A stretch of 64,000 nt of DNA from an uncultured delta proteobacterium (GCA_903911225.1 CAIWCT010000110.1:1016-65015); one strand, 5' to 3'. Counted from the stretch's first letter, positions 31,435 through 63,524 are shown. The notes: a model not told the origin generated them from the letters alone. A program made the numbers and translations.

Positions 31435-31471
31435 ATCCAGCAATTTTTTATAACACAAGGAGGACTCAAGG

Positions 31472-34400
31472 ATGAACATCACGCGAAGGGGATTTCTTAA
31501 AATCTCCGGGGGAGCGGTGGCCGCCGGCAGCCTCGGGCTGAACCTCTCAGAGGTCAAAGCAAGTGCCGCAACAACCAAGATAACATCAGCCAAGGAAACG
31601 ACAACCGTATGCCCGTACTGCTCAGTCGGGTGCAGCATTATCGTGCACACTCAGAACGGCAAAGTGGTTAATACCGAAGGCGATCCTGATTCTCCAATAA
31701 ACCAGGGTAGCCTGTGCAGCAAGGGCATGTCGGTATACCAACTTACCCATGTTAACCCGGACCGCCTGACCAAGCCCCTCTACCGCGCTCCCAAAAGTGA
31801 CAAGTGGGAAGAAAAATCATGGGAGTGGACGCTCGAAAAAATCGCAAATAATATAAAAAAGAGCCGGGATGAAAGCTTCAAGCAAACAAATACCAAAGGC
31901 GAAATTGTTAACCGTACGGAAGCCATTGCTTCTGTTGGCAGCGCCGCCATGGATAATGAAGAGTGTTTTATATATCAAAAATTTCTCAGGAGCCTGGGAC
32001 TCGTCTACATCGAGCACCAGGCACGGATATGACACTCCGCAACTGTAGCGGCTCTGGCAGAGTCGTTTGGACGCGGTGCAATGACCAATCACTGGATCGA
32101 TTTCCGCAACAGTGACTGTATTCTTGTTATGGGCAGCAACCCTGCCTGCAACCATCCTGTTTCTTTCAAGTGGATTCAAAAAGCAATTGATAAAGGCGGT
32201 AAGCTCGTGTGCGTCGACCCACGGTTCACGCAGACAGCGGCCAAGTCAAGCCTCTATGCCCCGTTGCGTTCTGGCTCTGACATTGCCTTTCTTGGGGGCA
32301 TGATAAAATACATTCTCGAAAACAACCTTTTTTTTGAAGACTATGTCAGGCAGTACACAAATGCCACCTACCTTGTAAACCCTGCTTTCAAGCTGCCCGG
32401 CGACAATGACGGCGTCTTCTCCGGCCTTACCGGTACAAAAACTAAAGAAGGGTATGTAAGCGGCAAGTACGACAGGTCGACCTGGTCTTTCCAGATGAAC
32501 GAGGACGGCACCGCAAAAAAAGATCCAACTATGCAAGATCCCAACTGTGCCTTTCAGCTCTTGAAAAAGCATTTCAGCCGCTACACAGTTGAAAAGGTCG
32601 TTGAAATCACTGGAACACCCAAAGACAAGCTTCTAGCGGTTTATCAGGCATATGCCGTAACAGGCAAGCCTGACAAGGCAGGCACGATTCTCTATGCCAT
32701 GGGTTGGACACAGCATACCGTAGGAGTTCAGAATATTCGTGCTATGTCCATTATCCAGCTGTTGCTGGGCAATATGGGTGTTGCCGGAGGCGGCGTGAAT
32801 GCGCTGCGCGGTGAGGCAAACGTACAGGGTTCAACCGATCACGGCCTGCTGTTTCACATTCTGCCGGGCTATCTTAAAGCCCCGGCAGCATCCATGCCTA
32901 CCCTTGCAGACTACAATGAAAAGAATACGCCAAAAACAAAAGAACCGAAAAGCGCCAACTGGTGGGGCAATACGCCCAAGTACTCGGCAAGTCTGCTGCG
33001 CTCGTTTTACGGCGCGGAAGTACCGCTTGATGCTGCCTATGGCTATCTCCCGAAAATTGATGATGGCGCTAATTACTCCTGGCTGACCATTTTTGACAAG
33101 ATGTACAAAGGTCAGTTCAGTGGCTTTTTTGCCTGGGGTCAGAACCCGGCATGCTCGGGTGCTAATGCCAACAAAGTGCGGCAGGCCCTTGCCAAGCTCA
33201 AGTGGATGGTCAATGTAAATCTCTTCCCAAATGAAACCGGTGATTTCTGGAATGGCCCTGGCATGAACCCGGCAAAGATCGATACAGAGGTCTTCATGCT
33301 TCCCTGCGCGGCATCTATGGAAAAGGAAGGCAGCATTTCTAACAGTGGCCGTTGGATGCAGTGGCGTTACAAGGCGACCAATGCGCCCGGAGAGGCCATG
33401 CCCGACGGTGAAATAATTTCTGAGCTGTTTCGCAAGGTGCGCGAACTCTACGAAAAGGACGGCGGACCTGTCTCCGATCCCATTTTAAAGCTCAGCTGGG
33501 ATTACGGCAAATCATTTGATGCGCATACTGTTGCCAAGGAAATTAACGGCTATTTCCTTGAGGACAAAGAAATCGATGGCAAACTCTACAAGAAGGGATC
33601 CCTTGTGCCCGCGTTTAAATTTCTGCAGGCCGACGGCTCTACCTCATCGGGTTGTTGGGTATACTGTGGCTCCTATACCGCCGACGGAAATAAAGCCGCA
33701 AAACGCGGGAAGGATGACCCGACAGGTATCGGCCAGTACTCGAATTGGGCATGGGCCTGGCCGGTCAATCGCAGAATCATCTATAACCGTGCTTCGGTTG
33801 ATATCAGCGGTAAACCCTATGCCCCTGACAAGCCGGTAATTTCATGGGACGGCACGGCATGGAAGGGCGATGTGCCTGATGGGCCGTGGCCTCCGCTTGC
33901 GTCAGAAACTGATGGCAAACTGCCTTTTATCATGAAGCCCGACGGCGTTGCCAGCATCTTCGGCCCCGGCCTTGCAGACGGCCCCTTCCCTGAGCACTAT
34001 GAACCTCTCGAGTGTCCAATAGAAAAGAACCCAATGTCCCCGCAGTTCGTCAACCCGACGGTCAAACGCTGGGAAAATGATGGCGTACCTGAACTGGACA
34101 AACGTGCCTCCTGCGATCCACGCTTTCCCATTGTCTGCACGACGTACCGCGTCAGCGAGCACTGGCAGACCGGTGTGATGACGCGCTGGACGCCGTGGCT
34201 GCTTGAGTTGCAACCAGAAATGTTTGTGGAGATGAGTCGAGAGTTAGCAGAGCTCAAGGGCTTTAAAAACGGCGAACGCGTTATGGTGAAATCAGCCCGT
34301 GGCGAAGTCAATGCCGTTGCTATCGTGACGCCCCGCTTTAAGCCTTTTACGATTGCAGGACAGATCGTGCATGAGGTTGGCATACCGTGGCACTATGGCT

Positions 34401-34534
34401 GGCGTTACCCAAACCCTGATAAGAAAGAACTCCGCAGCGCCAATCTGCTGACCCCGAGCATCGGTGACCCTAACACCATGATACCCGAATCAAAAGCCTT
34501 CATGGTGGACGTTATCAGGAAGGAGGGCAAATAA
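31472..34534 (+). CDS. fdhA: Formate dehydrogenase alpha subunit, Tat-exported and selenocysteine-containing (in-frame TGA at 32030-32032)
   Basis: The Tat signal is MNITRRGFLKISGGAVAAG. The FeS-binding motif is CPYCSVGCS. ORF 31472-32032 and ORF 32081-34534 are in the same frame (both start at positions of form 3k+2). The separating TGA sits in the canonical motif ...QARI-U-HSATVAALAESFGRGAM. The remainder is a molybdopterin oxidoreductase. Confidence 0.9.
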
Positions 34535-50703: not shown

Positions 50704-50815
50704 ATCCTGTCCTCCTTATATTGGAGTATCGACAGAACCATTACTTGACTTGAACTTTGATATATGAAAAATTAAGTCATCACCATAACAATACTTGACA
50801 CGGAAAAGATATCTC

Positions 50816-51829
50816 ATGAAACTGCATGATAAAATTCTTCTTGAACACGGCGGTGGCGGCCAATTAACCGGTGAGCTGATAGAGCAGGTATTTCTGCCGC
50901 GATTGGGTAATCCACATCTCATGCAACTCACCGACAGCGCACTTGTGGCTATTGGCGATCAACGAATCTGTTTTACTACCGATTCCTACGTGGTTAGCCC
51001 CCTGTTCTTTCCGGGAGGCGATATCGGCTCGCTTGCCGTTCATGGAACGGTCAATGACCTTGCGGTCTGCGGCGCACAGCCTCTGTTTTTAAGCGCCGGC
51101 TTCATCATCGAGGAGGGATTTGCAACGGCACAGCTTGAACAGATCGTTGATTCAATGGCCTCTGCTGCCGCACTGGCTGGCGTACAGGTTGTCACGGGAG
51201 ACACCAAGGTTGTCCCCCACGGTGCTACCGACGGCCTCTATATAACGACTTCAGGCATAGGTCGGTTTGTATACGATAAACCATTGTCTCCCTCCACCAT
51301 CAGGCCCGGTGACGCTGTTATTGTAAACGGCCCTGTGGGCGACCATGGCGCTGCCATACTATGCGCGCGGCAGGATCTTGGATTTTTATCAACGGTGCTA
51401 TCCGATTCCGCGCCACTGGGTAGCCTTGTACGGAATATTTTAAATGCTAGCCCGCACATTCACTGCATGCGCGATGCAACGCGAGGGGGGCTTGGGGCTG
51501 TGCTTGCGGAAATAGCGCAGCAGTCGGGCCACGATATTTTCGCTCGGGAAAACGACATCCCGTTGCGGGAAAGCGTACGGGGGATCTGCGAAATGCTGGG
51601 GTTTGACCCCCTTTACCTCGCTAATGAAGGAAAACTGGTTGTCTTTTGCGCAGCTGACGATGCCCCGGCAGTGCTTGCTGCCATGCATAGCCATGAGTTG
51701 GGCCATGAGGCAACCCGTATTGGAACTGTCCAGGAATCGGGCCGCGGACGTGTCGTGCTCACTACCCTAATCGGCGGAGAACGTGTTATTGATCGCCCTA
51801 CGGGTGAGCTGGTGCCGAGAATATGCTGA
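50816..51829 (+). CDS. hypE: Hydrogenase maturation factor HypE
   Basis: AIR-synthase-like fold (LEHGGGG...DAATR) ending in the diagnostic C-terminal ...ELVPRIC. Confidence 0.9.
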   Translation: MKLHDKILLEHGGGGQLTGELIEQVFLPRLGNPHLMQLTDSALVAIGDQRICFTTDSYVVSPLFFPGGDIGSLAVHGTVNDLAVCGAQPLFLSAGFIIEEGFATAQLEQIVDSMASAAALAGVQVVTGDTKVVPHGATDGLYITTSGIGRFVYDKPLSPSTIRPGDAVIVNGPVGDHGAAILCARQDLGFLSTVLSDSAPLGSLVRNILNASPHIHCMRDATRGGLGAVLAEIAQQSGHDIFARENDIPLRESVRGICEMLGFDPLYLANEGKLVVFCAADDAPAVLAAMHSHELGHEATRIGTVQESGRGRVVLTTLIGGERVIDRPTGELVPRIC

Positions 51830-51907: not shown

Positions 51908-52498
51908 CTAAAACTTAATCACCTTTCCAGCAGATGTCATGGCCTCAAGAATTTCCAGGGCATTTGAGATCGTACCAACTTGCACGTTTTCCCTTATTTT
52001 ATAAAAATTAAGGCATGTCCCGCAGATTAAAATTGTAAAGCCTTTTTTCTCAAGATCCTGAAGAACTTCAAGCATATAAGATCCGGAAGTAGCCAGCCGC
52101 ACTGCCTTGCTAATAAAAACGATTACACAATTTTTGTTTTGAAGATTCTGCATTGCGGACAGAAACCCGTTCATAAGAACCTTACCCAGTTCCATATTCG
52201 AACCGATATGATCAGCGTCAAACAGGTAGGCAATATTTTGCGTGTTAGACGGTGCCGCAGCGCAGGCTGGGCTTGCAGCATCCTTTTTGATCAGCAACTC
52301 GAAAATATTCTCGCCCTTGTCGATAACGCTAACAGTGCAGCCCTGTCCCGCCGCAAACCGCAAGATGTTTTCCCGGGCTGTATCATTATCTACAAGAACT
52401 GTTATTTCGCCGTGATTAAATCCTTCAAGCGCCTGTTTGGTAAGTACAACGGGCTGCGGACAGGCAAGACCTTTTGCATCAATATGTGTGTGTTTCAT
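51908..52498 (-). CDS. yedF: YedF-like selenium-metabolism protein (TusA-like N-domain fused to a DsrE-like domain)
   Basis: The N-terminal TusA motif is IDAKGLACPQPVVLTKQAL, followed by a C-terminal DsrE/DsrF-like redox-carrier fold of about 120 aa. The start was set at Met 52498, which overlaps the upstream stop (TAATG). Confidence 0.7.
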   Translation of the reverse strand: MKHTHIDAKGLACPQPVVLTKQALEGFNHGEITVLVDNDTARENILRFAAGQGCTVSVIDKGENIFELLIKKDAASPACAAAPSNTQNIAYLFDADHIGSNMELGKVLMNGFLSAMQNLQNKNCVIVFISKAVRLATSGSYMLEVLQDLEKKGFTILICGTCLNFYKIRENVQVGTISNALEILEAMTSAGKVIKF

Positions 52499-53415
52499 TA
52501 CGGTTGAACTCCTTGAAAAATAAACTCGTTCTGTTGTGTTGAACAACAATCATGTTCAGACAGTACGCGGTTGAGGGCATCAGGTATGCGTGCAATGATT
52601 TCGTGAATCTGTGTTGCAGGGGTAGGCTGTGCAAGCAGGCCTGCCATGCGGTTGGCCCTGCATGCTGTAGCACATGCATCGGGGATGGCATATCCGTGAT
52701 GGACAAGTGCAGCCGCCATGCCCGTCACCGTGTCGCCAGTGCCCCCGATGGGCTCCAACTCCTCAACAACAGGCTCATCAACCTGCTGGATGACCGCACC
52801 CTCATGGCAGATATAATCAGTGCGCCCCTTAACGCAAAGATATCGGGCAGCGTTGCCGAAAGAGTGGGTTTTTTTAATCAGTTCTGCCGGCTCTGCTTCA
52901 AGACGTGTTAGAAACCCGCGGGTATAGGCCGGGTGCGAAGCTTTTTCATCTGCCAGAAAAGCAAGCTCACCAATATCGGGCAGGAAAAGATCGTAAAATG
53001 GCGCTTGCCCGCTTGCCTTTGCCACATACATGAAACCGGCATCTGCTATCATAACAGGCTTTGCCTGCATTTTGCGCACTGCAGTGAGCACCTGGTTATG
53101 AAGCCCAATGTCTGGGATTATATAGTGCAGGCAAAGCGTATCAGCATGTGTCTTGGGTAAATGTTTGATTAAATAACGGTAGACCTCCCGGCTGCCTTCG
53201 CGTGTGCCGATATCGCCTCCGATTATGCACTCAGGTGCAGTGTCGCCTAAAAAATCCGCAGTGGCGCACACAGCGCCGATCATGGCAGCTGTTCCCCGAT
53301 TGAGCGAAAAGCTGCGGCCGTCGATGATAATGGAGGTTCCCTGCAGCTGCGCAGTGCCGACAGCCAGCGATAAATTCTGATCAGGTATTGTTCCGGCCAG
53401 CAGCATCGTTTTCAT
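52498..53415 (-). CDS. Ribokinase-superfamily protein related to the YjeF C-terminal domain (ADP/ATP-dependent NAD(P)HX dehydratase-like)
   Basis: The C-terminal motif PIGGTGDTVTGMAAALV matches the GGxGDVLxG motif of YjeF_C/ThiM-type kinases. Upstream are CVKGRTDYI (versus VLKGAGTVV) and PDIGELAFL (versus PHPGEAARL). ATGA couples it to the upstream gene. Confidence 0.5.
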   Translation of the reverse strand: MKTMLLAGTIPDQNLSLAVGTAQLQGTSIIIDGRSFSLNRGTAAMIGAVCATADFLGDTAPECIIGGDIGTREGSREVYRYLIKHLPKTHADTLCLHYIIPDIGLHNQVLTAVRKMQAKPVMIADAGFMYVAKASGQAPFYDLFLPDIGELAFLADEKASHPAYTRGFLTRLEAEPAELIKKTHSFGNAARYLCVKGRTDYICHEGAVIQQVDEPVVEELEPIGGTGDTVTGMAAALVHHGYAIPDACATACRANRMAGLLAQPTPATQIHEIIARIPDALNRVLSEHDCCSTQQNEFIFQGVQP

Positions 53416-53966
53416 GCAAGCAGTCTCCGCGCCTCATCAAAAGCGATATTAAGAGTGTAGGCGCACAGTGTGTAGCCGATTTGGCGGGGTGTGGATGCCG
53501 AATCAAGAGTTTTGCCGATCAGATCAAGGGCAAGATAGGGCACATCAGAGCATCCGCCGCCGGAAATATTGACAATCATTTTCGTCTCTTTTTCGACCGT
53601 AATCTTCATATTAGCCGAACGCACCATGAGATAGCGGCCAAAGTCTTTAGTTGAACAAATTTCTGTTGGCTGCATCAACTCTTCATTGACATAAATAATG
53701 TCCCGTGGCTCGTTACCGCTGTCTTTAAGTATGCGCTCGATTCCCATGCGCTCCATGATAGGGAACCTGATGGCAAGGTCGCAGCCCGTTCGGTACTGGG
53801 GCGGCGGAGCAACGACTTTAATATTTGCAAATGCAGCCATCTTCAGCGTTGCCTCGGCATGAATAACATCATTAACGCTGTCAAAAATAAGCAGCCCCTG
53901 CTCGACAGTCCCTTCTACAGACATGTCGTTTTTGTTTGAGCTGATAAGATTCTTTAAAAAACCCAT
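53412..53966 (-). CDS. Protein with N-terminal DUF3343-like (putative Se/S carrier) domain and a C-terminal domain of unknown function
   Basis: The N-terminal 70 aa (LLIFDSVNDVIHAEATLKMAAFANIKVVAPPPQYRTGCDLAIRF) fits the DUF3343 pattern of a conserved Cys in a beta-alpha-beta fold. The C-terminal half has an ISGGGCSD motif. Confidence 0.45.
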   Translation of the reverse strand: MGFLKNLISSNKNDMSVEGTVEQGLLIFDSVNDVIHAEATLKMAAFANIKVVAPPPQYRTGCDLAIRFPIMERMGIERILKDSGNEPRDIIYVNEELMQPTEICSTKDFGRYLMVRSANMKITVEKETKMIVNISGGGCSDVPYLALDLIGKTLDSASTPRQIGYTLCAYTLNIAFDEARRLLA

Positions 53967-53979
53967 GACAGCATGCCTG

Positions 53980-54213
53980 CTATTTTATTAATGTCAGTAC
54001 GATATCATCACTTTCAGTGCGAACTGCAACAGCCCAGCCGCAGTTTCCAGCAAGTCGGCTGATATTATCACGTGCCGTACCGGTATCAACGATAATTTCA
54101 AATTCACCGGAATCTGTTTTATCAATAAAACTCTTTGTTAAAACTACCGGCTGCGGACATGAAAGCCCGCGCGCATCAATACGTTCCATAGTAATCTCCA
54201 AATAAAGAAACAA
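53980..54213 (-). CDS. TusA-family sulfur/selenium carrier protein
   Basis: 77 aa with the TusA CPxP motif (IDARGLSCPQPVVLTK). Confidence 0.75.
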   Translation of the reverse strand: MFLYLEITMERIDARGLSCPQPVVLTKSFIDKTDSGEFEIIVDTGTARDNISRLAGNCGWAVAVRTESDDIVLTLIK

Positions 54214-54265
54214 CTAATCTGATTTGAGCACAGCATGCCATGCCCATTCATCCAACCAAAAAAAT

Positions 54266-55339
54266 TTAACCTATCTTTTTTATCATGGTCAGACCTATGG
54301 TTATGCAGGATGCAAGGCCGATAGTAACAAAAAGAGGCGTCCACTCACCTATTCCCTTGGGCGATGCGGCAACACCAAAGTTATGCGCAAAAGCGGCGCC
54401 AAGCAAAAGGCCAAAAACAAAAACCGCGGCATCCCCATCGCCTTCACCGCTCATGAAAAGCTGCCTGCCCGGACAGCCACCCGCAAGGGTGAAGGCAAGG
54501 CCAGCAAGCACCATGCCTGTAAAATTCCAGAACGTATTGGTGTGGGCTATAGGCTGAACGTCAAGGGTGGGGTGAAACTGGCCAAAAAAAAGATTAGCGG
54601 CAAAGGCGCCTAACACCAGCCCCAAGACTCCGGCCATGAGATAGAAATCGCGAACAAGAATCACATCGCGCACGGCCCCGATCGTGCAGAATCGCGTGCG
54701 CTGCGCAAGTATGCCTATTACCAGTCCGGCCAAAAGGCTCCATATGACGGGCGCATGCATTGATCCCGGACCTTTCACGCTGAAAAATGGTGCGCCTGTT
54801 GAAAGCTGGGGCCTGGCAAGCAGCAGAATCAGCAGTCCTGCCATAATGACAGGCAAAATAAGCCCTGCGGCCGTGTAGGTGTTCTGACTTCTGCCCAGAT
54901 TAAATCCTGCCTTAAGGAAAAGAATACCAATCCAAATGCCGGCCACAAGTCCGGCGATTCCGGCAATAGCATTAGGGTCGCCTCCAGCAAGCCGCAGCAA
55001 CGCACGCCACGGACAACCCAAAAACACAAGCGCACCGATGGCGGCAAAAAAACCAAGAACAAATCTCACAACCGGCGCAGAACCTGCGCGGGGTTTAAAC
55101 TCTTTAAAAGCAACTGCAGATAAAAGCGACCCCAGCACAAAGCCTATAATTTCGGGCCGTAGATACTGTACAACATCTGCACGATGCAAGCCCAGAGCTC
55201 CTGCTATATCGCGACAAAAACAGGCAACGCAGACACCCATGTTAGCAGGATTGCCATTAAATTGAAGAAAAGCGGCGATCAGGCCTATGACAAGTCCGAC
55301 AGCAAAGATCGCCTTCTTTGTGGTAAATAGGTTTTTCAT
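54266..55339 (-). CDS. yedE: YedE/YeeE-family inner-membrane transporter (putative selenium/thiosulfate uptake)
   Basis: 357 aa polytopic membrane protein with two internally repeated halves, each carrying a conserved Cys motif (GVCVACFCRD and FCTIGAVRD). An AAGGA RBS is present. Confidence 0.7.
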   Translation of the reverse strand: MKNLFTTKKAIFAVGLVIGLIAAFLQFNGNPANMGVCVACFCRDIAGALGLHRADVVQYLRPEIIGFVLGSLLSAVAFKEFKPRAGSAPVVRFVLGFFAAIGALVFLGCPWRALLRLAGGDPNAIAGIAGLVAGIWIGILFLKAGFNLGRSQNTYTAAGLILPVIMAGLLILLLARPQLSTGAPFFSVKGPGSMHAPVIWSLLAGLVIGILAQRTRFCTIGAVRDVILVRDFYLMAGVLGLVLGAFAANLFFGQFHPTLDVQPIAHTNTFWNFTGMVLAGLAFTLAGGCPGRQLFMSGEGDGDAAVFVFGLLLGAAFAHNFGVAASPKGIGEWTPLFVTIGLASCITIGLTMIKKIG

Positions 55340-55696
55340 TGAAATCCTTTCATCAGAAAAATTAAATACTTACAATTTTTATTTAAAGCTTTTTAAAGAT
55401 TTTTTCAAATTGATTAAACCTATGCAATAGGCGTTTAGGATAGAGGAAACAAATAGTTCGCAATTTGCTATTCACCTGCAAAATATGAAGATGTGAATGA
55501 CCGTATAGCAGACAGCGTCCTTTGGATGAATTGAAAAATTTAAATTCAATTTTTCAGCATAATCTATGTTGTACCAATAACCCGCAAATTCAAAAAACCT
55601 ATACATGGGCGCTTAGGCATTGGAATAATCAAATTGACGGTTTGGGATTCATAAGCGATGTATTAATAACAGCTAATTTATTTATAAGGATCATCA

Positions 55697-56455
55697 ATGT
55701 ATTCTGCAGGTATAGACATCGGGTCGGTTGCGACAAAAGGCGTCATCTATAATGGCGCAGTTGCAGCAAGCGTTATCATCCCAACGGGCTGGAGTCCGCG
55801 TGACGCCTCTCGCCTTGCTCTGAATATGGTTCTTGACAAAACCGGTATCAGCCATGATGCGGTCAAGACAATTATTGCAACCGGCTACGGCAGAGTGTCG
55901 GCTGATTTTGCAAGCCGCTCAGTCACAGAAATCACCTGCCATGCCAGGGGAGCATTCGCCCTGCATCCCGGTATCCGAACCGTGCTTGATATCGGCGGTC
56001 AGGATGCCAAAGTTATACGGCTTGACGACAGCGGCGCAGTGGCTGATTTTGCCATGAACGACAAATGCGCGGCTGGCACAGGCCGGTTTCTGGAAGTCAT
56101 GTCCCGGATACTCGGCACCGAGGTAGAGGATCTTGACAGCCTTGCTGTAAACGCCGACCCTGTTCCAATCACCAGCATGTGTGCAGTTTTTGCAGAATCT
56201 GAAGTTGTAAGCCTTATGGCAAAAGGCGCAACACGAGAAGCTATAGCCCGTGGCGTTCTTGAATCGATAGCAGACCGGGTGATTGCGCTGCTAGGCAGAA
56301 TTTCTCCTACAGGCTCCATTGCCTTCACCGGCGGGCTGTCACGCAGCCGCGTGCTTGTCAGCATTATTGAGAAGCGTCTCGGCATGCCGCTGTTCACCTC
56401 CCCAAGCTCCCAAATAGCCGGTGCACTCGGCGGCGCTGTAATTGGCTGGAACTGA
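55697..56455 (+). CDS. BadF/BadG/BcrA/BcrD-type ATPase (CoA-substrate-specific enzyme activase, HgdC-like)
   Basis: Acetate/sugar-kinase-fold ATPase motifs GIDIGSVATKGV and DIGGQDAKVI. C-terminal Cys residues suit the bridging [4Fe-4S] (AFAESE...). Confidence 0.75.
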   Translation: MYSAGIDIGSVATKGVIYNGAVAASVIIPTGWSPRDASRLALNMVLDKTGISHDAVKTIIATGYGRVSADFASRSVTEITCHARGAFALHPGIRTVLDIGGQDAKVIRLDDSGAVADFAMNDKCAAGTGRFLEVMSRILGTEVEDLDSLAVNADPVPITSMCAVFAESEVVSLMAKGATREAIARGVLESIADRVIALLGRISPTGSIAFTGGLSRSRVLVSIIEKRLGMPLFTSPSSQIAGALGGAVIGWN

Positions 56456-56466
56456 GAAAGTGCAAA

Positions 56467-57618
56467 ATGCAGCATATCGACAGTATGATTCAGGCTTTAG
56501 CAAAAACGCGCGATAGCGCCATTGCCGATTTACAGCAACTCAAAGATGCTGGTACAAAAATCGTTGGGGCGTACTGCCTGTTTGCTCCCATAGAGCTTAT
56601 AGCCGCGGCAGGGGCTGTCCCCGTGTCGCTCTGTGGCATGACAAATGATCCCATTATCCATGCTGAAAAGCATTTGCCGCGTAATCTCTGCCCGCTTATC
56701 AAATCAAGCTACGGCTATGCCGTTACCGGAACCTGCCCGTATTTCTATTATTCCGATCTTGTTGTGGGGGAGACCACTTGTGATGGTAAGAAAAAAATGT
56801 TTGAACTTCTTGCCAAAATTGCGCCCGTGCATGTGATGCGCCTGCCGCAGGCAAACGACCGGCCAGAGGATGTCCAGGCCTGGAAGCAGGAGATCATCAG
56901 ATTAAAGGACAGAATCGAGCAGGAGTTTAACCTTATTATAACCGATGATACACTTCGACAGGCAATCAAAGAAAAAAATGAGGAACGCCGGGTGTATCGC
57001 GAACTCTACGGACTGTCAAAGCTTACCCCCCCTCCCCTTCGTGGCAGCCAGGTGCATCGCGTGCTGTATGGATCGGGCTATGCCTTTGACAAAACCGCGC
57101 AACTTACAAAAGTGCGAAGCCTGATAGATGCAATCAAAGATGCCTGCAACCGCGGAGAGATACATTCGCCTGTTGGCAGGCCTCGAATTCTGATAACCGG
57201 CTGCCCAATCGGTGGTGCAACGGAAAAAATCATCACTCTTATCGAAGAAAGCGGAGGTGAGATTGTTTGCTTTGAGAACTGCGGCGGCGCCAAGGACAGG
57301 GAATTTTTGGTTGATGAAACAATCGACCCCTATGATGCGCTTGCACAAAAGTATATCCGCCTTGCCTGTTCATGCATGAGCCCGAACAATTCCAGGATCG
57401 AGTTACTCTCGCGCCTTATTGACGAGTACCGTGCACAGGGGGTTATCGATGTCGTTCTGCACGCCTGCCACACCTACAATATGGAAACCTGGAGGGTGAA
57501 AGAGCTTGCACAGAAAGACAAGGGCATACCGTATCTGCACCTGGAAACTGACTACTCTCCCGGCGATGAAGGCCAGCTTCGCACCCGTATCAGCGCATTT
57601 GTCGAAATGCTTTCCTAA
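56467..57618 (+). CDS. 2-hydroxyacyl-CoA dehydratase family protein (HgdB/D-component-like)
   Basis: 383 aa with conserved Cys residues (CLFAP, CGM, CPLIK) typical of the HgdAB/BcrBC/HadBC family. It sits immediately downstream of the activase. Confidence 0.7.
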   Translation: MQHIDSMIQALAKTRDSAIADLQQLKDAGTKIVGAYCLFAPIELIAAAGAVPVSLCGMTNDPIIHAEKHLPRNLCPLIKSSYGYAVTGTCPYFYYSDLVVGETTCDGKKKMFELLAKIAPVHVMRLPQANDRPEDVQAWKQEIIRLKDRIEQEFNLIITDDTLRQAIKEKNEERRVYRELYGLSKLTPPPLRGSQVHRVLYGSGYAFDKTAQLTKVRSLIDAIKDACNRGEIHSPVGRPRILITGCPIGGATEKIITLIEESGGEIVCFENCGGAKDREFLVDETIDPYDALAQKYIRLACSCMSPNNSRIELLSRLIDEYRAQGVIDVVLHACHTYNMETWRVKELAQKDKGIPYLHLETDYSPGDEGQLRTRISAFVEMLS

Positions 57619-58613: not shown

Positions 58614-59579
58614 TTAGTCGGCCTTTTTCGGCCCGGCAAAATAATACACTACTGCGAACGAATACTGACAGCCGCCGGATATATTTTTTCCGTAGGGATA
58701 TGCCGTGTAGCTAACTTCGGTAAACCAGGAATTTGTCAGTTTAAAGCACAAAGCGGTTTCAAGCTTCCCTAAGTCGTATTGAAGTCCGAGCGATGGATTA
58801 GACGATGCCTGCGCTGAAGCATCCGAGGCGCTTGATACGATCACCTGTCCGGTGGCATAATCGACATAAGCGCTACGAGCTTGTTTGGGTATGGGGATTC
58901 TTCGGGCGTTGTGCATGCTCTTTGTACCGTCAAGCTTTACCCGCAGTGACAGTGGTCCAAAAAGGTCCATGCCGAATTCGATGAGGTATTTAAATTCATC
59001 TGAAGGCGCTTTGGTTCTAAAGCGGTAGCCTGCTTCAAGACCGCAGTATCCCGGAAACGGCCACAGCGACTTTCCCGCAAGAAGCCGTATCTCGTAATCG
59101 CTCTGGTTGTTGCCGGGCAGTATCTTCTCGCGATTTGTATATAGTCCGGCATTCTTGTAGAGAAACTGAACAGAGCCGACAAATGGCTCTTTAATAAGCC
59201 CCAGCTTCAGCCCTGCCTCCACATCACCCGGGCCGGTATAATGCGTAGCCACATACCGCCGTTTCTCAACATCGTTTTCCGTATAGTCGTTCCATGCGCT
59301 TGACCTGAGCCATTTGTAGGGCAGCGAGCAGGAAAGCGTGAGTCTTTCAAGCAATCCGTATTCACCATAAAATGTCATATTAGTATCGTAAAATTTGCCG
59401 CCGTTGGCCAGATGATCCTGGCTGCCGTTTGAGGTAAAAGTTTTGTCGGTAGTGTAACGATTAATGGAAAGTTTGCCGTAGAAAGCACCTTGAGGCTCGC
59501 ACCAGGCACCGGCAAAACACTCCTGAACTGACAGGAGGAACAAAAGACAGATAAAGCCAACCATTCTGAACAGTTTCAT
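58614..59579 (-). CDS. Predicted outer-membrane beta-barrel protein of unknown function
   Basis: Signal peptide MKLFRMVGFICLLFLLSVQECFA, Tyr/Gly-rich alternating strands, 321 aa. Confidence 0.45.
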   Translation of the reverse strand: MKLFRMVGFICLLFLLSVQECFAGAWCEPQGAFYGKLSINRYTTDKTFTSNGSQDHLANGGKFYDTNMTFYGEYGLLERLTLSCSLPYKWLRSSAWNDYTENDVEKRRYVATHYTGPGDVEAGLKLGLIKEPFVGSVQFLYKNAGLYTNREKILPGNNQSDYEIRLLAGKSLWPFPGYCGLEAGYRFRTKAPSDEFKYLIEFGMDLFGPLSLRVKLDGTKSMHNARRIPIPKQARSAYVDYATGQVIVSSASDASAQASSNPSLGLQYDLGKLETALCFKLTNSWFTEVSYTAYPYGKNISGGCQYSFAVVYYFAGPKKAD

Positions 59580-59766: not shown

Positions 59767-60210
59767 ATGAGCCGAAAATATATGATTTCAATTCTGGCCT
59801 TGTTTGCCCTATGCACCGCAAATTTGACCTATGCAGCTGATGCCAGCACTTTCAATGTGCAGGTTTTATTACCCGGCATGACTAAAAGCATAGATATCCG
59901 GCAGCAGCAGACACTGCCACTCGGATGCCCGCAATTTTTCATATTCACTATTGGTTCAGGCATGCTCGGCTTATCAGTTTCAAAAAATGATGTTGCAGGA
60001 GATACCATTTTTATGGCCGGTTTTGTTAGTACCGGCGGAATGATTGTTCCGGTTGTGCGCATCGGTACTTCAACAGGCATGATCGATCAAGTCATTGAAA
60101 TCAGAGGAAATCAAAACACGATCAGTTTCGGTTGGATCTGGTGTGGTGTTGCCGCATCGCAGAATGTTCCAATCTACAGCTCTGTGTTCAGACTTTCACT
60201 GGAGCCATAA
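59767..60210 (+). CDS. Small secreted hypothetical protein
   Basis: Signal peptide MISILALFALCTANLTYA; no recognisable motif and a weak RBS. Confidence 0.35.
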   Translation: MSRKYMISILALFALCTANLTYAADASTFNVQVLLPGMTKSIDIRQQQTLPLGCPQFFIFTIGSGMLGLSVSKNDVAGDTIFMAGFVSTGGMIVPVVRIGTSTGMIDQVIEIRGNQNTISFGWIWCGVAASQNVPIYSSVFRLSLEP

Positions 60211-60254
60211 TAATCCCGGGGTATATCCCCATAAACAATTTTCAAGGAGGAAAC

Positions 60255-61925
60255 ATGAAAAGGATTTTGAAACTGGTTTGTGCTGTGGCAGTGGTAGCGC
60301 TGCTGGCAGCAGGCTGCAATGGCAAGTCGTTATTTGTTACGTCGGACTGGCTGGCAAAAAATATGACGGATACAAAAATCGTCATCGTTGATGCCAACAA
60401 CAAAGCAGCCTATGCCGCTGGTCATATCCCCGGTGCAATCAACATCTGGTATGAAGATTATAACGACACCTCTCTGCAATTGAATCTTTTACCCCCTGCA
60501 ACCCTTGCTGAAAAACTTGGTGCTAAGGGCATTGATGGCAGCGAAACATTCGTAATTTATGGCGAAGCACCGTTTTATATCGGCCGCATTAGCTGGATGC
60601 TTGATTATTTGGGCTGCAAAAACATCTATATTCTTGACGGTGGACTCACTAAATGGAAAAGCGAAAGCAGGGAAACAAACACAGATAATGCAACCGTTGA
60701 ACCCAAAACTTTTGTCACCGATGTTGATGATGATGTCTATGCCACAACCGAGGAAGTGGTTGCAGGCCTTGATGATCCAAAAACCGTTATTATCGATGTT
60801 CGAACCGATGAGGAGTACAATGGCTGGCAGCTAAGCAAGGAACCCCGCCCAGGCCATATTACCGGCGCAATCCATCTGCCTATCACCAGCTGGTTTAATG
60901 CCGACAAGACCATCAAATCCGTCAAAGAACTGACCGATATGTTCAGTGCTGCCGGAGTAAAAAGAGGCAAAAATCTTATTTTTTACTGCACCATCGGTGG
61001 TCGCAGCGGCCTGGGGCCCGAACTTGCGCTGAAATATCTCCACTATACCAGATCTGCTTCAAACTATGACGGTTCGATCCGCGAATGGGGTCTGGATGCA
61101 ACCAGACCAATGGAAGCAGGTTTTGTAAATTTCAAACTGCTTTATCCGGCTAAATATGTGAATTCAAATCTCTCCAAGTTGAAGATTATAGATTGCCGCT
61201 CTGAAGACGATTATAAGGCAGGCCATATACCAGGAGCTATTCACCTCATGTGGCAGGCTCTCGACGACAATACAACCGGCGACCTTCGACCTAACACAGA
61301 AATTGCTTCTATTCTTGGTGATCACGGCATCACCGCTGAGGATAATGAAACCGTGTTGATCTATACCACTGTTGAAGGCTCATGGGGAGCAGACGGTCGT
61401 TTGTTTTGGGCCCTTGAATACATGGGACATAAAGATGTCCATATCCTGAACGGCGGCTGGAAAGCCTGGGTCGACAGCGGCTATGCTACTGAAACAACGG
61501 TTAACACTCCTGCACCTGAGACCTATACAGGTATGGTAACCGCCTCAGTGCTTGCCACAACTGATTATATTGAAGGAAATCTCAAGGCTTCCGGAGTCAA
61601 AATTATCGACACACGAGCAGATGATGAATGGAGCGGTCAGGCTCTCTACGGCGCAGCCCGCGGTGGAAGAATACCCGGAGCTGTTCATTACAACTACGAC
61701 ACTTATTTTGACAGCGACTGGACTCTCAAAGATCACAACCAGTTGCAGGCAGCCTATACAGCTCTAGGTGTAACTGAAGAAAAGACAGCAATTTTTTATT
61801 GTGCTGTGGGCATCCGATCAGGCTTCGGATACTTCACCCTCAGGCTTCTGGGATATCCATCGATCAAAAATTATGATGGCTCATGGAATGCATGGGCAGC
61901 TGATTCGTCACTGCCGATTGAGTAA
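60255..61925 (+). CDS. Periplasmic lipoprotein with four rhodanese domains (two with catalytic Cys); thiosulfate/polysulfide sulfurtransferase
   Basis: Lipobox LLAAGC. Active-site loops are CTIGGRSG (domain 2) and CAVGIRSG (domain 4); domains 1 and 3 lack Cys. Start at ATG 60255 after AAGGAGG. Confidence 0.8.
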   Translation: MKRILKLVCAVAVVALLAAGCNGKSLFVTSDWLAKNMTDTKIVIVDANNKAAYAAGHIPGAINIWYEDYNDTSLQLNLLPPATLAEKLGAKGIDGSETFVIYGEAPFYIGRISWMLDYLGCKNIYILDGGLTKWKSESRETNTDNATVEPKTFVTDVDDDVYATTEEVVAGLDDPKTVIIDVRTDEEYNGWQLSKEPRPGHITGAIHLPITSWFNADKTIKSVKELTDMFSAAGVKRGKNLIFYCTIGGRSGLGPELALKYLHYTRSASNYDGSIREWGLDATRPMEAGFVNFKLLYPAKYVNSNLSKLKIIDCRSEDDYKAGHIPGAIHLMWQALDDNTTGDLRPNTEIASILGDHGITAEDNETVLIYTTVEGSWGADGRLFWALEYMGHKDVHILNGGWKAWVDSGYATETTVNTPAPETYTGMVTASVLATTDYIEGNLKASGVKIIDTRADDEWSGQALYGAARGGRIPGAVHYNYDTYFDSDWTLKDHNQLQAAYTALGVTEEKTAIFYCAVGIRSGFGYFTLRLLGYPSIKNYDGSWNAWAADSSLPIE

Positions 61926-62366: not shown

Positions 62367-63524
62367 ATGACAAAATCAAACATAGTAGCCATAATTCTTG
62401 CTGCAGGTTATTCGTCCCGCTTTCAAGGCGCCTTTAAGCCTTTGGCAACTATAAGCTCCAAGCCTGTACTGGAGCATGCCGTAAATCTTTTTCAGACAGC
62501 AGACATCAAGGATATTGTTGTAGTTGTAGGCCACCGCTGGGCTGCTATGGGCCATAAACTCAGCCGTCTACCCGTTAAAGTTGTGATAAATGAAAACTAC
62601 GCACAAGGCATGTTTTCATCGATAAAAACTGGGGTTGAAAATCTGCCTGGTCATGCAGAGGCTTTTTTTTTACTGCCGGTAGATATTTGTTTGGTAAGGC
62701 CCAGTACCATTCTTGCACTTATACGGGCACAACGGCAAAATAAGGCTGAAATACTACATCCAGTGTTTATGGAAAAACGCGGACATCCACCCCTTGTCGG
62801 GCGGCGGATTGCCAGGGCAATTGGGGTATGGGGCGGCGATGGAGGGCTAAGCAGCTTGCTGGAGCAGTATGAAGACTATTCAGCCGATGTACCCGTTGCC
62901 GACGAGTTCATCCATCTTGATCTGGATACACGAAGTGACCTGCTCCGGTTGCGCAAGCGCTACCAGCGCTATGACATCCCTACCGAACAGGAATGCATTG
63001 CTTTGCAGAGGCTATGGAATGTTCCGGGTTTGGTCATAGCTCATTGCCGGACGGTAGCCAGGGTTGCCGACATACTGGCCGAAGCATTAAACAATGCCGG
63101 ATGTCGTCTGGATACTGACTTACTGCATGCGGTAGCGTTGCTGCATGATTGCGCAAAAGGTTTACCTGATCATGCTAAAACAGGTGCATGGTTGCTGGCA
63201 GATGCGGGTTTAAAAAAAACGGCTGATATTGTAGAGCGGCATATGGATGTTGTCTTTGAGGACTCCGAAATGCTTAATGAAAGCCATATACTGTATCTTG
63301 CAGATAAACTGGTGGAAAACACGACACTAGTGACACTTGATGAACGGCTGCACATCATGTTGACTCGTTTTAGAGGCTCGGCGCGCCAGGTAGCCATCTA
63401 CAGGCTGGCTAAGGCTCAGAATATAGGCAAGCGTGTCGAGACGCTTATCGGCGTTTCTCTAACCTCTGTGCTTTCAACAGGCAACTGGAAGCTGTCCGGT
63501 AAACAGCAATCTCTGATACCGTGA
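62367..63524 (+). CDS. MobA/MocA-like nucleotidyltransferase fused to a C-terminal HD phosphohydrolase domain
   Basis: The N-terminal motif is AIILAAGYSSRF...LLPVD (the molybdenum-cofactor NTP-transferase fold). The C-terminal HD motif is HAVALLHDCAKG...D. Confidence 0.7.
   Translation: MTKSNIVAIILAAGYSSRFQGAFKPLATISSKPVLEHAVNLFQTADIKDIVVVVGHRWAAMGHKLSRLPVKVVINENYAQGMFSSIKTGVENLPGHAEAFFLLPVDICLVRPSTILALIRAQRQNKAEILHPVFMEKRGHPPLVGRRIARAIGVWGGDGGLSSLLEQYEDYSADVPVADEFIHLDLDTRSDLLRLRKRYQRYDIPTEQECIALQRLWNVPGLVIAHCRTVARVADILAEALNNAGCRLDTDLLHAVALLHDCAKGLPDHAKTGAWLLADAGLKKTADIVERHMDVVFEDSEMLNESHILYLADKLVENTTLVTLDERLHIMLTRFRGSARQVAIYRLAKAQNIGKRVETLIGVSLTSVLSTGNWKLSGKQQSLIP

Follow-up and report, generated by a model that had tools for sequence, protein, structure and literature searches.

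A conserved YedE-TusA-carrier gene module with a ribokinase-fold component as a candidate system for selenium capture and delivery

Background

The gene neighborhood analyzed here raises the question of what a kinase-fold protein might be doing in the middle of an operon whose other members are associated with the trafficking of selenium or sulfur. The operon occupies positions 51908-55339, on the minus strand, of a 64,000-nucleotide (nt) stretch of DNA from an uncultured delta proteobacterium (GCA_903911225.1, CAIWCT010000110.1:1016-65015), the whole of which is hereafter termed the window. It encodes YedE, a TusA-like protein, a 184-amino acid (aa) protein combining DUF3343 and DUF8182 domains (the carrier), a 305-aa kinase-fold protein for which we use the shorthand KIN, and a long version of YedF. 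Comparative genomics put forward YedE, YedF, TusA and DUF3343 as selenium genes in 2015 (PMC5322559); all are still described as uncharacterized, and no dedicated selenium transporter had been demonstrated as late as 2024 (PMC11097638). The locus studied here presents a testable candidate for the missing step in the specific uptake of trace selenium by bacteria and its hand-over to the selenophosphate synthetase SelD. We assign a probability of roughly 60% to the reading that the locus represents a conserved selenium capture and delivery module feeding SelD, within which the carrier and KIN form a single ATP-dependent unit.

Organization of the operon

Five co-directional minus-strand open reading frames (ORFs) fill the interval, and together with their family matches they bear out the five-gene layout that an original prediction had read from the sequence. 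The features of the operon are:

54266..55339, minus strand: yedE, 357-aa polytopic membrane protein, putative selenium channel
53980..54189, minus strand: tusA-like gene, 69 aa, CPxP cysteine (GLSCPQP); extendable to a TTG at 54213
53412..53966, minus strand: carrier, whole gene, 184 aa; AlphaFold model, position directly 5' of KIN
53697..53897, minus strand: DUF3343/Se_S_carrier domain of the carrier, residues 24-90; PF11823, invariant Cys62 in RTGCDL
53415..53678, minus strand: DUF8182 domain of the carrier, about residues 97-184; PF26554 tag, Cys139, Cys168, AANMK
52498..53415, minus strand: KIN, 305 aa, ribokinase superfamily, related to NnrD/YjeF_C; GGTGD with D228
51908..52498, minus strand: long yedF, 196 aa, TusA domain (CPxP) and DsrE-like domain (CGTC)
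53412..53415, minus strand: ATGA overlap of the carrier stop and the KIN start, sequence GCATGAAAA
52496..52500, minus strand: TAATG overlap of the KIN stop and the yedF start, sequence CGTAATGAAA
55340..55696, no strand assigned: AT-rich divergent intergenic region of 357 bp, presumed site of the operon promoter

Two of the four junctions are overlaps, both of which are read in the sequence as predicted, and the other two are short spacers, which refines the earlier description of the operon as translationally coupled. The expected gap of 13 nt between the TusA-like gene and the carrier is also found, whereas the 52 nt given for the gap between yedE and the TusA-like gene is obtained only with the TTG start at 54213. 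The ATG at 54189, which extends this gap to 76 nt, is the more likely start, being preceded by a GGAG 8 nt upstream and corresponds to the 69-aa gene call of the Joint Genome Institute. Consensus promoter sites in 55340-55696 were no more numerous than in shuffled sequence, and promoter, terminator and Rfam scans over the operon yielded nothing above background.

A conserved four-gene core

A scan of one genome per species recovered a KIN relative in at least 550 genomes. Gene neighborhoods were studied in the best 80 loci, in which ORFs were called and then searched with the window proteins, using flanks of up to 10 kb on each side. These loci span about six phyla and belong in their majority to Thermodesulfobacteriota, and otherwise to Bacillota, Nitrospirota, Synergistota, Omnitrophota and one metagenome-assembled genome labelled Bacteriovoracaceae. 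The same gene order is repeated across these phyla; the arrangement is far beyond chance. The two-domain carrier occurs immediately upstream of KIN in 73/75 loci with sufficient flank, a TusA-like gene lies between YedE and the carrier in 63/73, and in 54/58 a YedE gene of the same orientation is encoded upstream of KIN at a distance within 3 kb, while a long YedF is found downstream of KIN in only 5/59. These counts define the conserved unit as YedE>TusA>carrier>KIN, with YedF as an optional fifth gene. Its tightest pair is carrier-KIN: in 69 of 70 loci, by an approximate estimate of start positions, the carrier stop overlaps the KIN start or is separated from it by no more than 7 nt. Of the composition originally proposed for the operon, the middle genes are kept beside yedE across relatives as the most conserved part of the neighborhood, while YedF falls outside the core. 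The least-known genes, namely the carrier and KIN, are accordingly the most tightly linked parts of a widespread conserved module, which is not a quirk of one genome.

The complete YedE-TusA-carrier-KIN array is seen in the complete genome of Desulfovibrio piger (CP189842.1; locus L087, 5057-8038), a cultured human-gut sulfate reducer, where KIN is labelled 'NAD(P)H-hydrate dehydratase'; the module is also present in the cultured Desulfatitalea alkaliphila. Its presence in cultured organisms such as these makes genetics and biochemistry feasible.

The association of the carrier with KIN extends to gene fusions. Five DUF8182 representatives (clusters at 50% identity), 514-588 residues in length, are single chains in which DUF3343 and DUF8182 are joined to KIN through a low-complexity linker, and a search with one such protein, P0266, indicated about 42 clusters of carrier-KIN fusions at 90% identity, some of them found on dozens of contigs. 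Identity to P0266 is 42% (6e-46) for the carrier of the window and 43% (3e-80) for its KIN, and in both loci examined the fusion again follows YedE-TusA. As the two proteins are fused into a single chain, they are likely to act together physically. A second type of fusion links a DUF1858 domain, with a CxxC motif, to the C-terminus of KIN in P0112, and other KIN homologues of 356-370 aa may represent further cases. In 12 loci DUF1858 is encoded by a gene of its own after KIN, in the same orientation, and the distances between the KIN stop and the DUF1858 start fit a short overlap in 10 of them (L010, L013, L014, L026, L028, L058, L061, L071, L075 and L082), these overlaps being deduced from the distances and the coordinates confirmed only for L010. 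DUF1858, annotated as a 'prismane-associated redox disulfide' domain, is probably a dithiol partner.

The DUF3343-DUF8182 carrier

The carrier matches PF11823 (DUF3343/Se_S_carrier) over residues 24-90 with 53.3 bits against a threshold of 25, in agreement with the predicted DUF3343 assignment of the 184-aa protein. Its C-terminal half, which had been singled out as an uncharacterized domain, does have a Pfam name, namely DUF8182 (PF26554); this tag is assigned by precomputed Pfam annotation to the identical protein and to each of the 120 homologues listed, while a local Pfam search of the window proteins gave no match to PF26554. An alignment of 34 homologues revealed three invariant cysteines, of which Cys62 is situated in the RTGCDL motif of DUF3343, and Cys139 (SGGGC[SP]DVPY) and Cys168 (TLC[AG]Y) are both in DUF8182, where an AANMK motif is also kept. 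The AlphaFold model of the carrier, with a predicted local distance difference test score (pLDDT) of 87 and a predicted template modelling score (pTM) of 0.79, shows two domains packed together after a disordered segment formed by the first 19-22 residues.

A profile restricted to DUF8182 retrieved 117 clusters among 1.84 billion representative proteins, all of one family and with no remote relatives. Because of this distribution, DUF8182 can be described as a narrow and highly constrained domain that is essentially dedicated to the YedE-TusA-carrier-KIN context. Searches of the PDB with the carrier sequence recovered nothing and those with the DUF8182 profile nothing meaningful, and comparison of DUF8182 with solved structures detected no convincing or significant likeness. 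An apparent likeness to IscU failed significance testing at the level of sequence and structure, and the IscU/NifU scaffold was consequently rejected as a relative of DUF8182.

KIN, a divergent member of the NnrD lineage

KIN falls below the thresholds of PF01256 (Carb_kinase/YjeF_C; 22.3 bits versus 27) and TIGR00196 (21.2 versus 129.85), and is likewise sub-threshold to ThiM and Phos_pyr_kin; many of its relatives bear a precomputed PF01256 tag, which places the family at the edge of that model. An AlphaFold model computed from 37 homologues (pLDDT 91.4, pTM 0.90) displays a ribokinase-like fold, with the α/β core and the nucleotide-binding motif at the C-terminal side expected of the superfamily, and in structure comparisons the NnrD structures are its nearest neighbors. 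Profile comparison aligns residues 107-260 of KIN with residues 335-472 of Escherichia coli Nnr, bringing into register the motif pairs IADAG and DADAL, PDIGELAFL and PHPGEAARL, VKG and LKG, and GGTGDTVTG and GGMGDVLSG. The GGTGD motif, equivalent to the GGxGD anion hole, contains the invariant catalytic D228, and the PDxGE motif has an Asp where Nnr has a His. The original identification of the 305-aa protein as YjeF_C-like, rather than as a member of an unrelated housekeeping family, is supported by the fold, the proximity to NnrD and the GGTGD motif. The conservation of these motifs, including Asp228, indicates that KIN has retained its phosphotransfer apparatus.

Several features nonetheless set KIN apart. 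No alignment with Nnr is obtained over its first 100 residues, the N-terminal half has an extra β-hairpin region, and an invariant insert specific to the family, DEKAxHPxYTRGF, maps to a loop that is modelled less confidently. The family has 58 invariant columns at about 50% identity, none of which is a cysteine. A search of the PDB with the KIN sequence found no match, and one with the KIN profile gave weak matches to ThiM and Nnr confined to the C-terminal part. E. coli Nnr is, unlike KIN, fused to YjeF_N, and YjeF_N is absent from the window operon and, as annotated, from the same-strand neighbors in the 80 loci. Thus, KIN shares with NnrD/YjeF_C the DADAL-like, P(H/D)xGE, (V/L)KG and GGxGD motifs, and probably the activation of a hydroxyl by ATP or ADP, but differs in its sub-threshold scores, its remodelled N-terminal half, its own loop and its pairing or fusion with a carrier in place of YjeF_N. 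By its sequence features it is classified as a distinct subfamily of the NnrD lineage and not as an NnrD orthologue. The labels "NAD(P)H-hydrate dehydratase" and "sugar kinase", which public annotation gives to its relatives, represent a systematic error that the present analysis corrects.

YedE, the TusA-like protein and YedF

The window YedE scores 477.3 bits against TIGR04112 (seleno_YedE; cut-off 200) and also matches PF04143 (Sulf_transp), while it remains below the cut-off of the thiosulfate transporter TsuA model (NF052577; 51.6 bits versus 400); the TsuB model (NF041048) likewise gave a below-cut-off score, 12.4 bits versus 147.5. TIGR04112 is reported to be essentially confined to SelD-containing organisms (PMC5322559). 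The TusA-like protein matches PF01206 with 54 bits (threshold 28.6) and has the characteristic CPxP cysteine in GLSCPQP. The long YedF scores 187.2 bits against TIGR03527 (cut-off 110), combines PF01206 with PF02635, and contains an ICGTC motif (CGxC).

Association with selenium utilization

Neighboring genes were grouped by all-against-all clustering across 77 loci. SelD (TIGR00476, 351 bits) was found within the flanks of 24 of them, compared with a chance expectation of about 0.4 loci, estimated from around 15 genes called in each locus and a frequency of one selD in approximately 3000 genes. In 10 loci it is encoded downstream of KIN in the same orientation, at a distance of 49-238 nt, and in three more it follows YedF and a HAD-like gene. 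The LysR_Sec_metab regulator (NF040786, 308 bits) occurs in 18/77 loci. Taken together with the carrier-KIN fusions, these adjacencies in relatives strengthen the earlier proposal of an unrecognized route for the activation or hand-off of selenium; among the targets that had been suggested for it, the nearby hydrogenase and formate dehydrogenase cofactor genes and a rhodanese lipoprotein are not indicated, and the comparative evidence indicates SelD instead.

The product of the HAD-like gene has 156 aa and a DYNGT motif and belongs to the soluble, P-type-ATPase-like members of the HAD superfamily; the gene recurs near KIN, YedF and SelD in about 9-10 loci. The gene order KIN > small ORF > YedF > HAD-like > SelD is seen in L033, L056 and L064, with the small ORF in L033 and L064 only. 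The occurrence of a phosphatase-like protein beside a kinase-fold enzyme may be meaningful.

Two further genes of the window bear on this question:

31454-34534, plus strand: FdhA, formate dehydrogenase alpha subunit with an in-frame TGA at 32030-32032
50795-51829, plus strand: HypE, TIGR02124, 443 bits

The fdhA frame is open throughout and its TGA corresponds to U140 of E. coli FdhF; this alignment confirms that the organism decodes selenocysteine (Sec), as had been anticipated from the Sec-containing FdhA. Since selD, LysR_Sec_metab and DUF1858 were not found in the 64-kb window by tblastn, the local evidence for selenium is furnished by this Sec-containing protein. The HypE is genuine, ending in PRIC, and its gene converges on yedF at a distance of 78 nt. 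It was rejected as a functional partner as the adjacency is not conserved in relatives, and for the same reason no link of the operon to hydrogenase maturation is drawn. Apparent "HypE" matches in other loci are most likely SelD, which has the same fold; L048 and L051 have a gene of the SelD cluster nearby.

Comparison with known systems

YeeE depends on the TusA-like protein YeeD, whose cysteine the transported substrate modifies (Ikei et al. 2024, PMC11073785). The YeeE-YeeD (TsuA-TsuB) system has in common with the module a Sulf_transp channel and, directly after it, a small protein of TusA fold whose CPxP cysteine is reactive and, by analogy, is likely to be a valid working model for the YedE and TusA-like genes. 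It differs in having neither a three-cysteine carrier nor a kinase-fold enzyme, and the proteins of the window do not reach the cut-offs of the TsuA and TsuB models, with YedE belonging to the selenium-associated clade. The YedE-YedF/FdhT-FdhU pairs of E. coli and Campylobacter jejuni also unite a TIGR04112 YedE with a TusA-domain partner and are linked to a selenium-dependent formate dehydrogenase (PMC5322559); the window module is distinguished from them by its four-gene core, to which the long YedF is an optional addition. To our knowledge, the two-gene loci are devoid of the DUF3343-DUF8182 carrier and KIN. Mutants of fdhT/fdhU in C. jejuni reportedly lose formate dehydrogenase activity unless selenium is added.

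In the TusA-DsrE and DsrEFH relays, small single-cysteine proteins similarly pass a chalcogen along, and both TusA and DsrE domains are represented here in the TusA-like protein and YedF. The persulfide relays known to us are independent of ATP up to the final acceptor and have no ribokinase-fold component. A conceptual parallel is provided by SelD and HypE of the PurM superfamily, which use ATP to convert a species at a mobile loop or tail that bears a cysteine: HypE carries out the dehydration of a cysteine-bound carboxamide, and SelD phosphorylates selenide near a glycine-rich Cys/Sec loop. These enzymes, however, have a PurM-like rather than a ribokinase-like fold, and in the module the cysteine loop is located on a separate or fused carrier domain.

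In full-text literature searches, no description came up of KIN or DUF8182, of the two fused or of the module of four genes, though mention in Shaw 2012 (fdhTU) or Haft & Gwadz 2023 is not ruled out. All four are absent from the 2015 comparative-genomics paper (PMC5322559), no kinase is listed among the top ten selD-overlapping families in the selenoneine study of Kayrouz & Seyedsayamdost, and NCBIfam release 20 has no model for the carrier or KIN. The view that the kinase-fold protein lies outside the described selenium and sulfur relays therefore agrees with both the literature and the curated models. The module would represent a chalcogen relay that is unprecedented in having an ATP-dependent component of ribokinase fold, and would be categorically new if KIN performs a new selenium-activating reaction.

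A proposed mechanism

The observed family assignments, the fold of KIN, the gene order, the coupling and fusion of carrier and KIN, the co-location with SelD and the LysR regulator, and the cysteine content allow a scheme to be drawn, for which we infer the direction of flow, selenium rather than sulfur as the element, and all of the chemistry. YedE, as a homologue of the thiosulfate channel YeeE, would admit a selenium anion across the membrane, and the CPxP cysteine of the TusA-like protein would capture the selenium at the cytoplasmic face, following the YeeE-YeeD precedent. The coupling and fusion suggest that selenium would then move on to the three-cysteine DUF3343-DUF8182 carrier, which might present it to KIN, probably on the glycine-rich Cys139 loop. 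KIN, by its descent from the ATP/ADP-dependent NAD(P)HX dehydratases, is predicted to activate a hydroxyl with ATP or ADP, an activity suggested by its NnrD ancestry and its retained general base, and the processed selenium would go to the selenophosphate synthetase SelD. DUF1858, with its CxxC motif, or the long YedF, with its CGxC motif, may supply or accept disulfide equivalents, and could recycle disulfides. The module as a whole implies an energy-dependent reaction that lies outside current selenium schemes.

As for the chemistry of the KIN step, we tentatively suggest that the enzyme might phosphorylate the Se-OH of selenite, or of a seleninic intermediate bound to the Cys139 loop, and that the phosphate might then be displaced by a carrier thiol with formation of an S-Se bond. 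Such a step would drive S-Se bond formation at nanomolar selenium. The classical reaction of thiols with selenite needs four thiols, and the one TusA cysteine and three carrier cysteines add up to four. In a more far-reaching version, KIN would be an NnrD-derived, ATP-dependent selenium-activating enzyme of ribokinase fold, phosphorylating an Se-O group or an Se nucleophile on the carrier, and would be obligatory between the channel and SelD in glutathione-poor anaerobes. We hold this version to be doubtful, but if true it would amount to a new enzymatic reaction in selenium assimilation and would explain the specific capture of nanomolar selenium.

A number of considerations weigh against the reading of the locus as a selenium capture and delivery module. 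Thiol reduction of selenite needs no ATP in vitro, so that a role for ATP is not forced, and the group that KIN acts on could just as well belong to an organic hydroxyl compound or to a carrier serine. The lack of selD, LysR_Sec_metab and DUF1858 in the window has been mentioned above, and SelD is outside the flanks in about two thirds of the loci. The carrier-KIN pair is coupled to a ThiS-like protein in L002, L021, L038 and L057, which could reflect sulfur chemistry or a different end product. Furthermore, deletion of yedE in Methanococcus maripaludis produced no clear selenium phenotype (PMC11097638), and an exporter role for YedE has been considered by Lin et al. 2015.

Alternative explanations

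The alternative that survives best, though it is improbable, retains selenium as the element and assigns a different chemistry to KIN, which would phosphorylate a perselenide on the carrier (Cys-S-Se-) to yield selenophosphate or a precursor of it, in parallel to or ahead of SelD. The complete set of phosphotransfer motifs in KIN is consistent with this, as are the SGGGC loop of the carrier, which resembles the glycine-rich Cys/Sec loop of SelD, the fusions that bring this loop within reach of the active site, and the HAD-type phosphatase-like gene recurring at 9-10 loci near KIN, YedF and SelD. However, the position of SelD directly downstream in many loci points to cooperation rather than replacement, and the invariant general base Asp228 suggests a hydroxyl nucleophile and not an ionized selenolate. 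Conversion of ATP to ADP alone may also not suffice, if the energetics of SelD, which spends two phosphoanhydride bonds, are taken as a guide.

It is quite improbable that the module handles sulfur in the form of thiosulfate, persulfide or polysulfide, with the selenium association arising as a by-product of the annotation of the YedE family. YedE does lie within the Sulf_transp family, TusA, DsrE and DUF3343 are also found in sulfur relays and in organisms lacking SelD (PMC5322559), the hosts are mostly sulfur-cycling anaerobes, and the carrier-KIN pair occurs with ThiS-like genes in some loci, in L002 also with ThiF. Against this stand the 477 bits of YedE on the selenium-specific TIGR04112 as opposed to 52 versus 400 on TsuA, the presence of SelD in 24 loci and of LysR_Sec_metab in 18, and the reported restriction of TIGR04112 essentially to SelD-containing organisms.

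We attach a comparably low probability to the possibility that KIN is non-catalytic with respect to selenium, being either a nucleotide-sensing or scaffold subunit that gates or stabilizes the carrier or the channel, or a diverged and co-transcribed NAD(P)HX repair enzyme. The label NAD(P)H-hydrate dehydratase, which annotation pipelines apply to its relatives, and the NnrD-like fold and C-terminal motifs are compatible with such a role, but KIN scores only 21 bits versus 130 on the NnrD equivalog model, its N-terminal half does not align with Nnr, and it has its own DEKAxHPxYTRGF insert and no YjeF_N partner. Moreover, a context that is fixed across phyla, with recurrent fusion to the carrier, is hard to square with housekeeping repair, and the 58 invariant positions, among them the catalytic Asp, argue for an active enzyme. 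Finally, detoxification or export of selenium, with YedE serving for efflux and the carrier for sequestration, is very unlikely: cysteine-rich carriers can serve as sinks and the exporter role raised by Lin et al. would fit, but export is less consistent with the co-location with SelD, the enzyme through which selenium enters every known use, with the reported effect of added selenium on the C. jejuni fdhT/fdhU mutants, and with the rise of yedE mRNA under selenium starvation in M. maripaludis (PMC11097638).

Other genes of the neighborhood and a ThiS-associated variant

The remaining annotated features of the window are:

55697..57618, plus strand: activase (DCCP-R type) and double-cubane-cluster reductase; TIGR00241 262 bits, NF040772 511 bits
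57615-58583, minus strand: NapH-like ferredoxin membrane protein
58614-59579, minus strand: 321-aa secreted protein with no family match, which may be an outer-membrane barrel
59767-60210, plus strand: 147-aa secreted protein
60132-61925, plus strand: multi-rhodanese lipoprotein, partial match to ExtH (NF040901, 84 bits versus a cut-off of 200)
62367-63524, plus strand: DVU_1551-family nucleotide (NTP) transferase, MocA/MobA-like with an HD-like C-terminal part, close to the rhodanese gene; NF045665 394 bits
36147-36267, plus strand: molybdenum/tungsten cofactor riboswitch, RF01055 70.5 bits, the only Rfam match in the window

The ATP-dependent activase/reductase pair is divergent from yedE, and the same pair is found beside the module in L033 (2039-4087), L059 (1707-3892) and L079 (5883-7938). 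STRING ties such a pair to YedE and YedF as well as DUF3343 in Slackia (PMC5322559), and a provisional link between DCCP and selenium has already been mentioned (PMC10418091). The pair is a possible accessory of the module, not part of its core, and may reduce a selenium species at low potential. The genes between 57615 and 61925 could form a set for the handling of selenium or sulfur on the envelope side. ExtH is a rhodanese of the selenite/tellurite reduction operon of Geobacter, and a homologue of the NapH-like protein (with a Fer4mem match) is present in a few of the relatives' loci (L005, L008 and L026).

In the ThiS-associated variant, exemplified by L002 (8868-13375), a ThiS-like protein ending in GG follows carrier-KIN. 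The next gene in L002, L021 and L057 encodes a member of an uncharacterized family of about 190-200 aa, with a length of 188 aa in L002. Further along, L002 and L057 both have two genes of one family, which in L002 is adenylosuccinate-lyase-like (Pfam Lyase_1), along with a gene of the family that is ThiF in L002; the identity of ThiF and Lyase_1 was checked with Pfam only in L002, and L057 has the same gene families. This organization suggests that the ThiS-like branch loads a ubiquitin-like carrier, possibly for a selenium- or sulfur-containing metabolite. In L021 and L038 a protein resembling MFS transporters, as judged by a reading of its sequence, is encoded directly upstream of the carrier.

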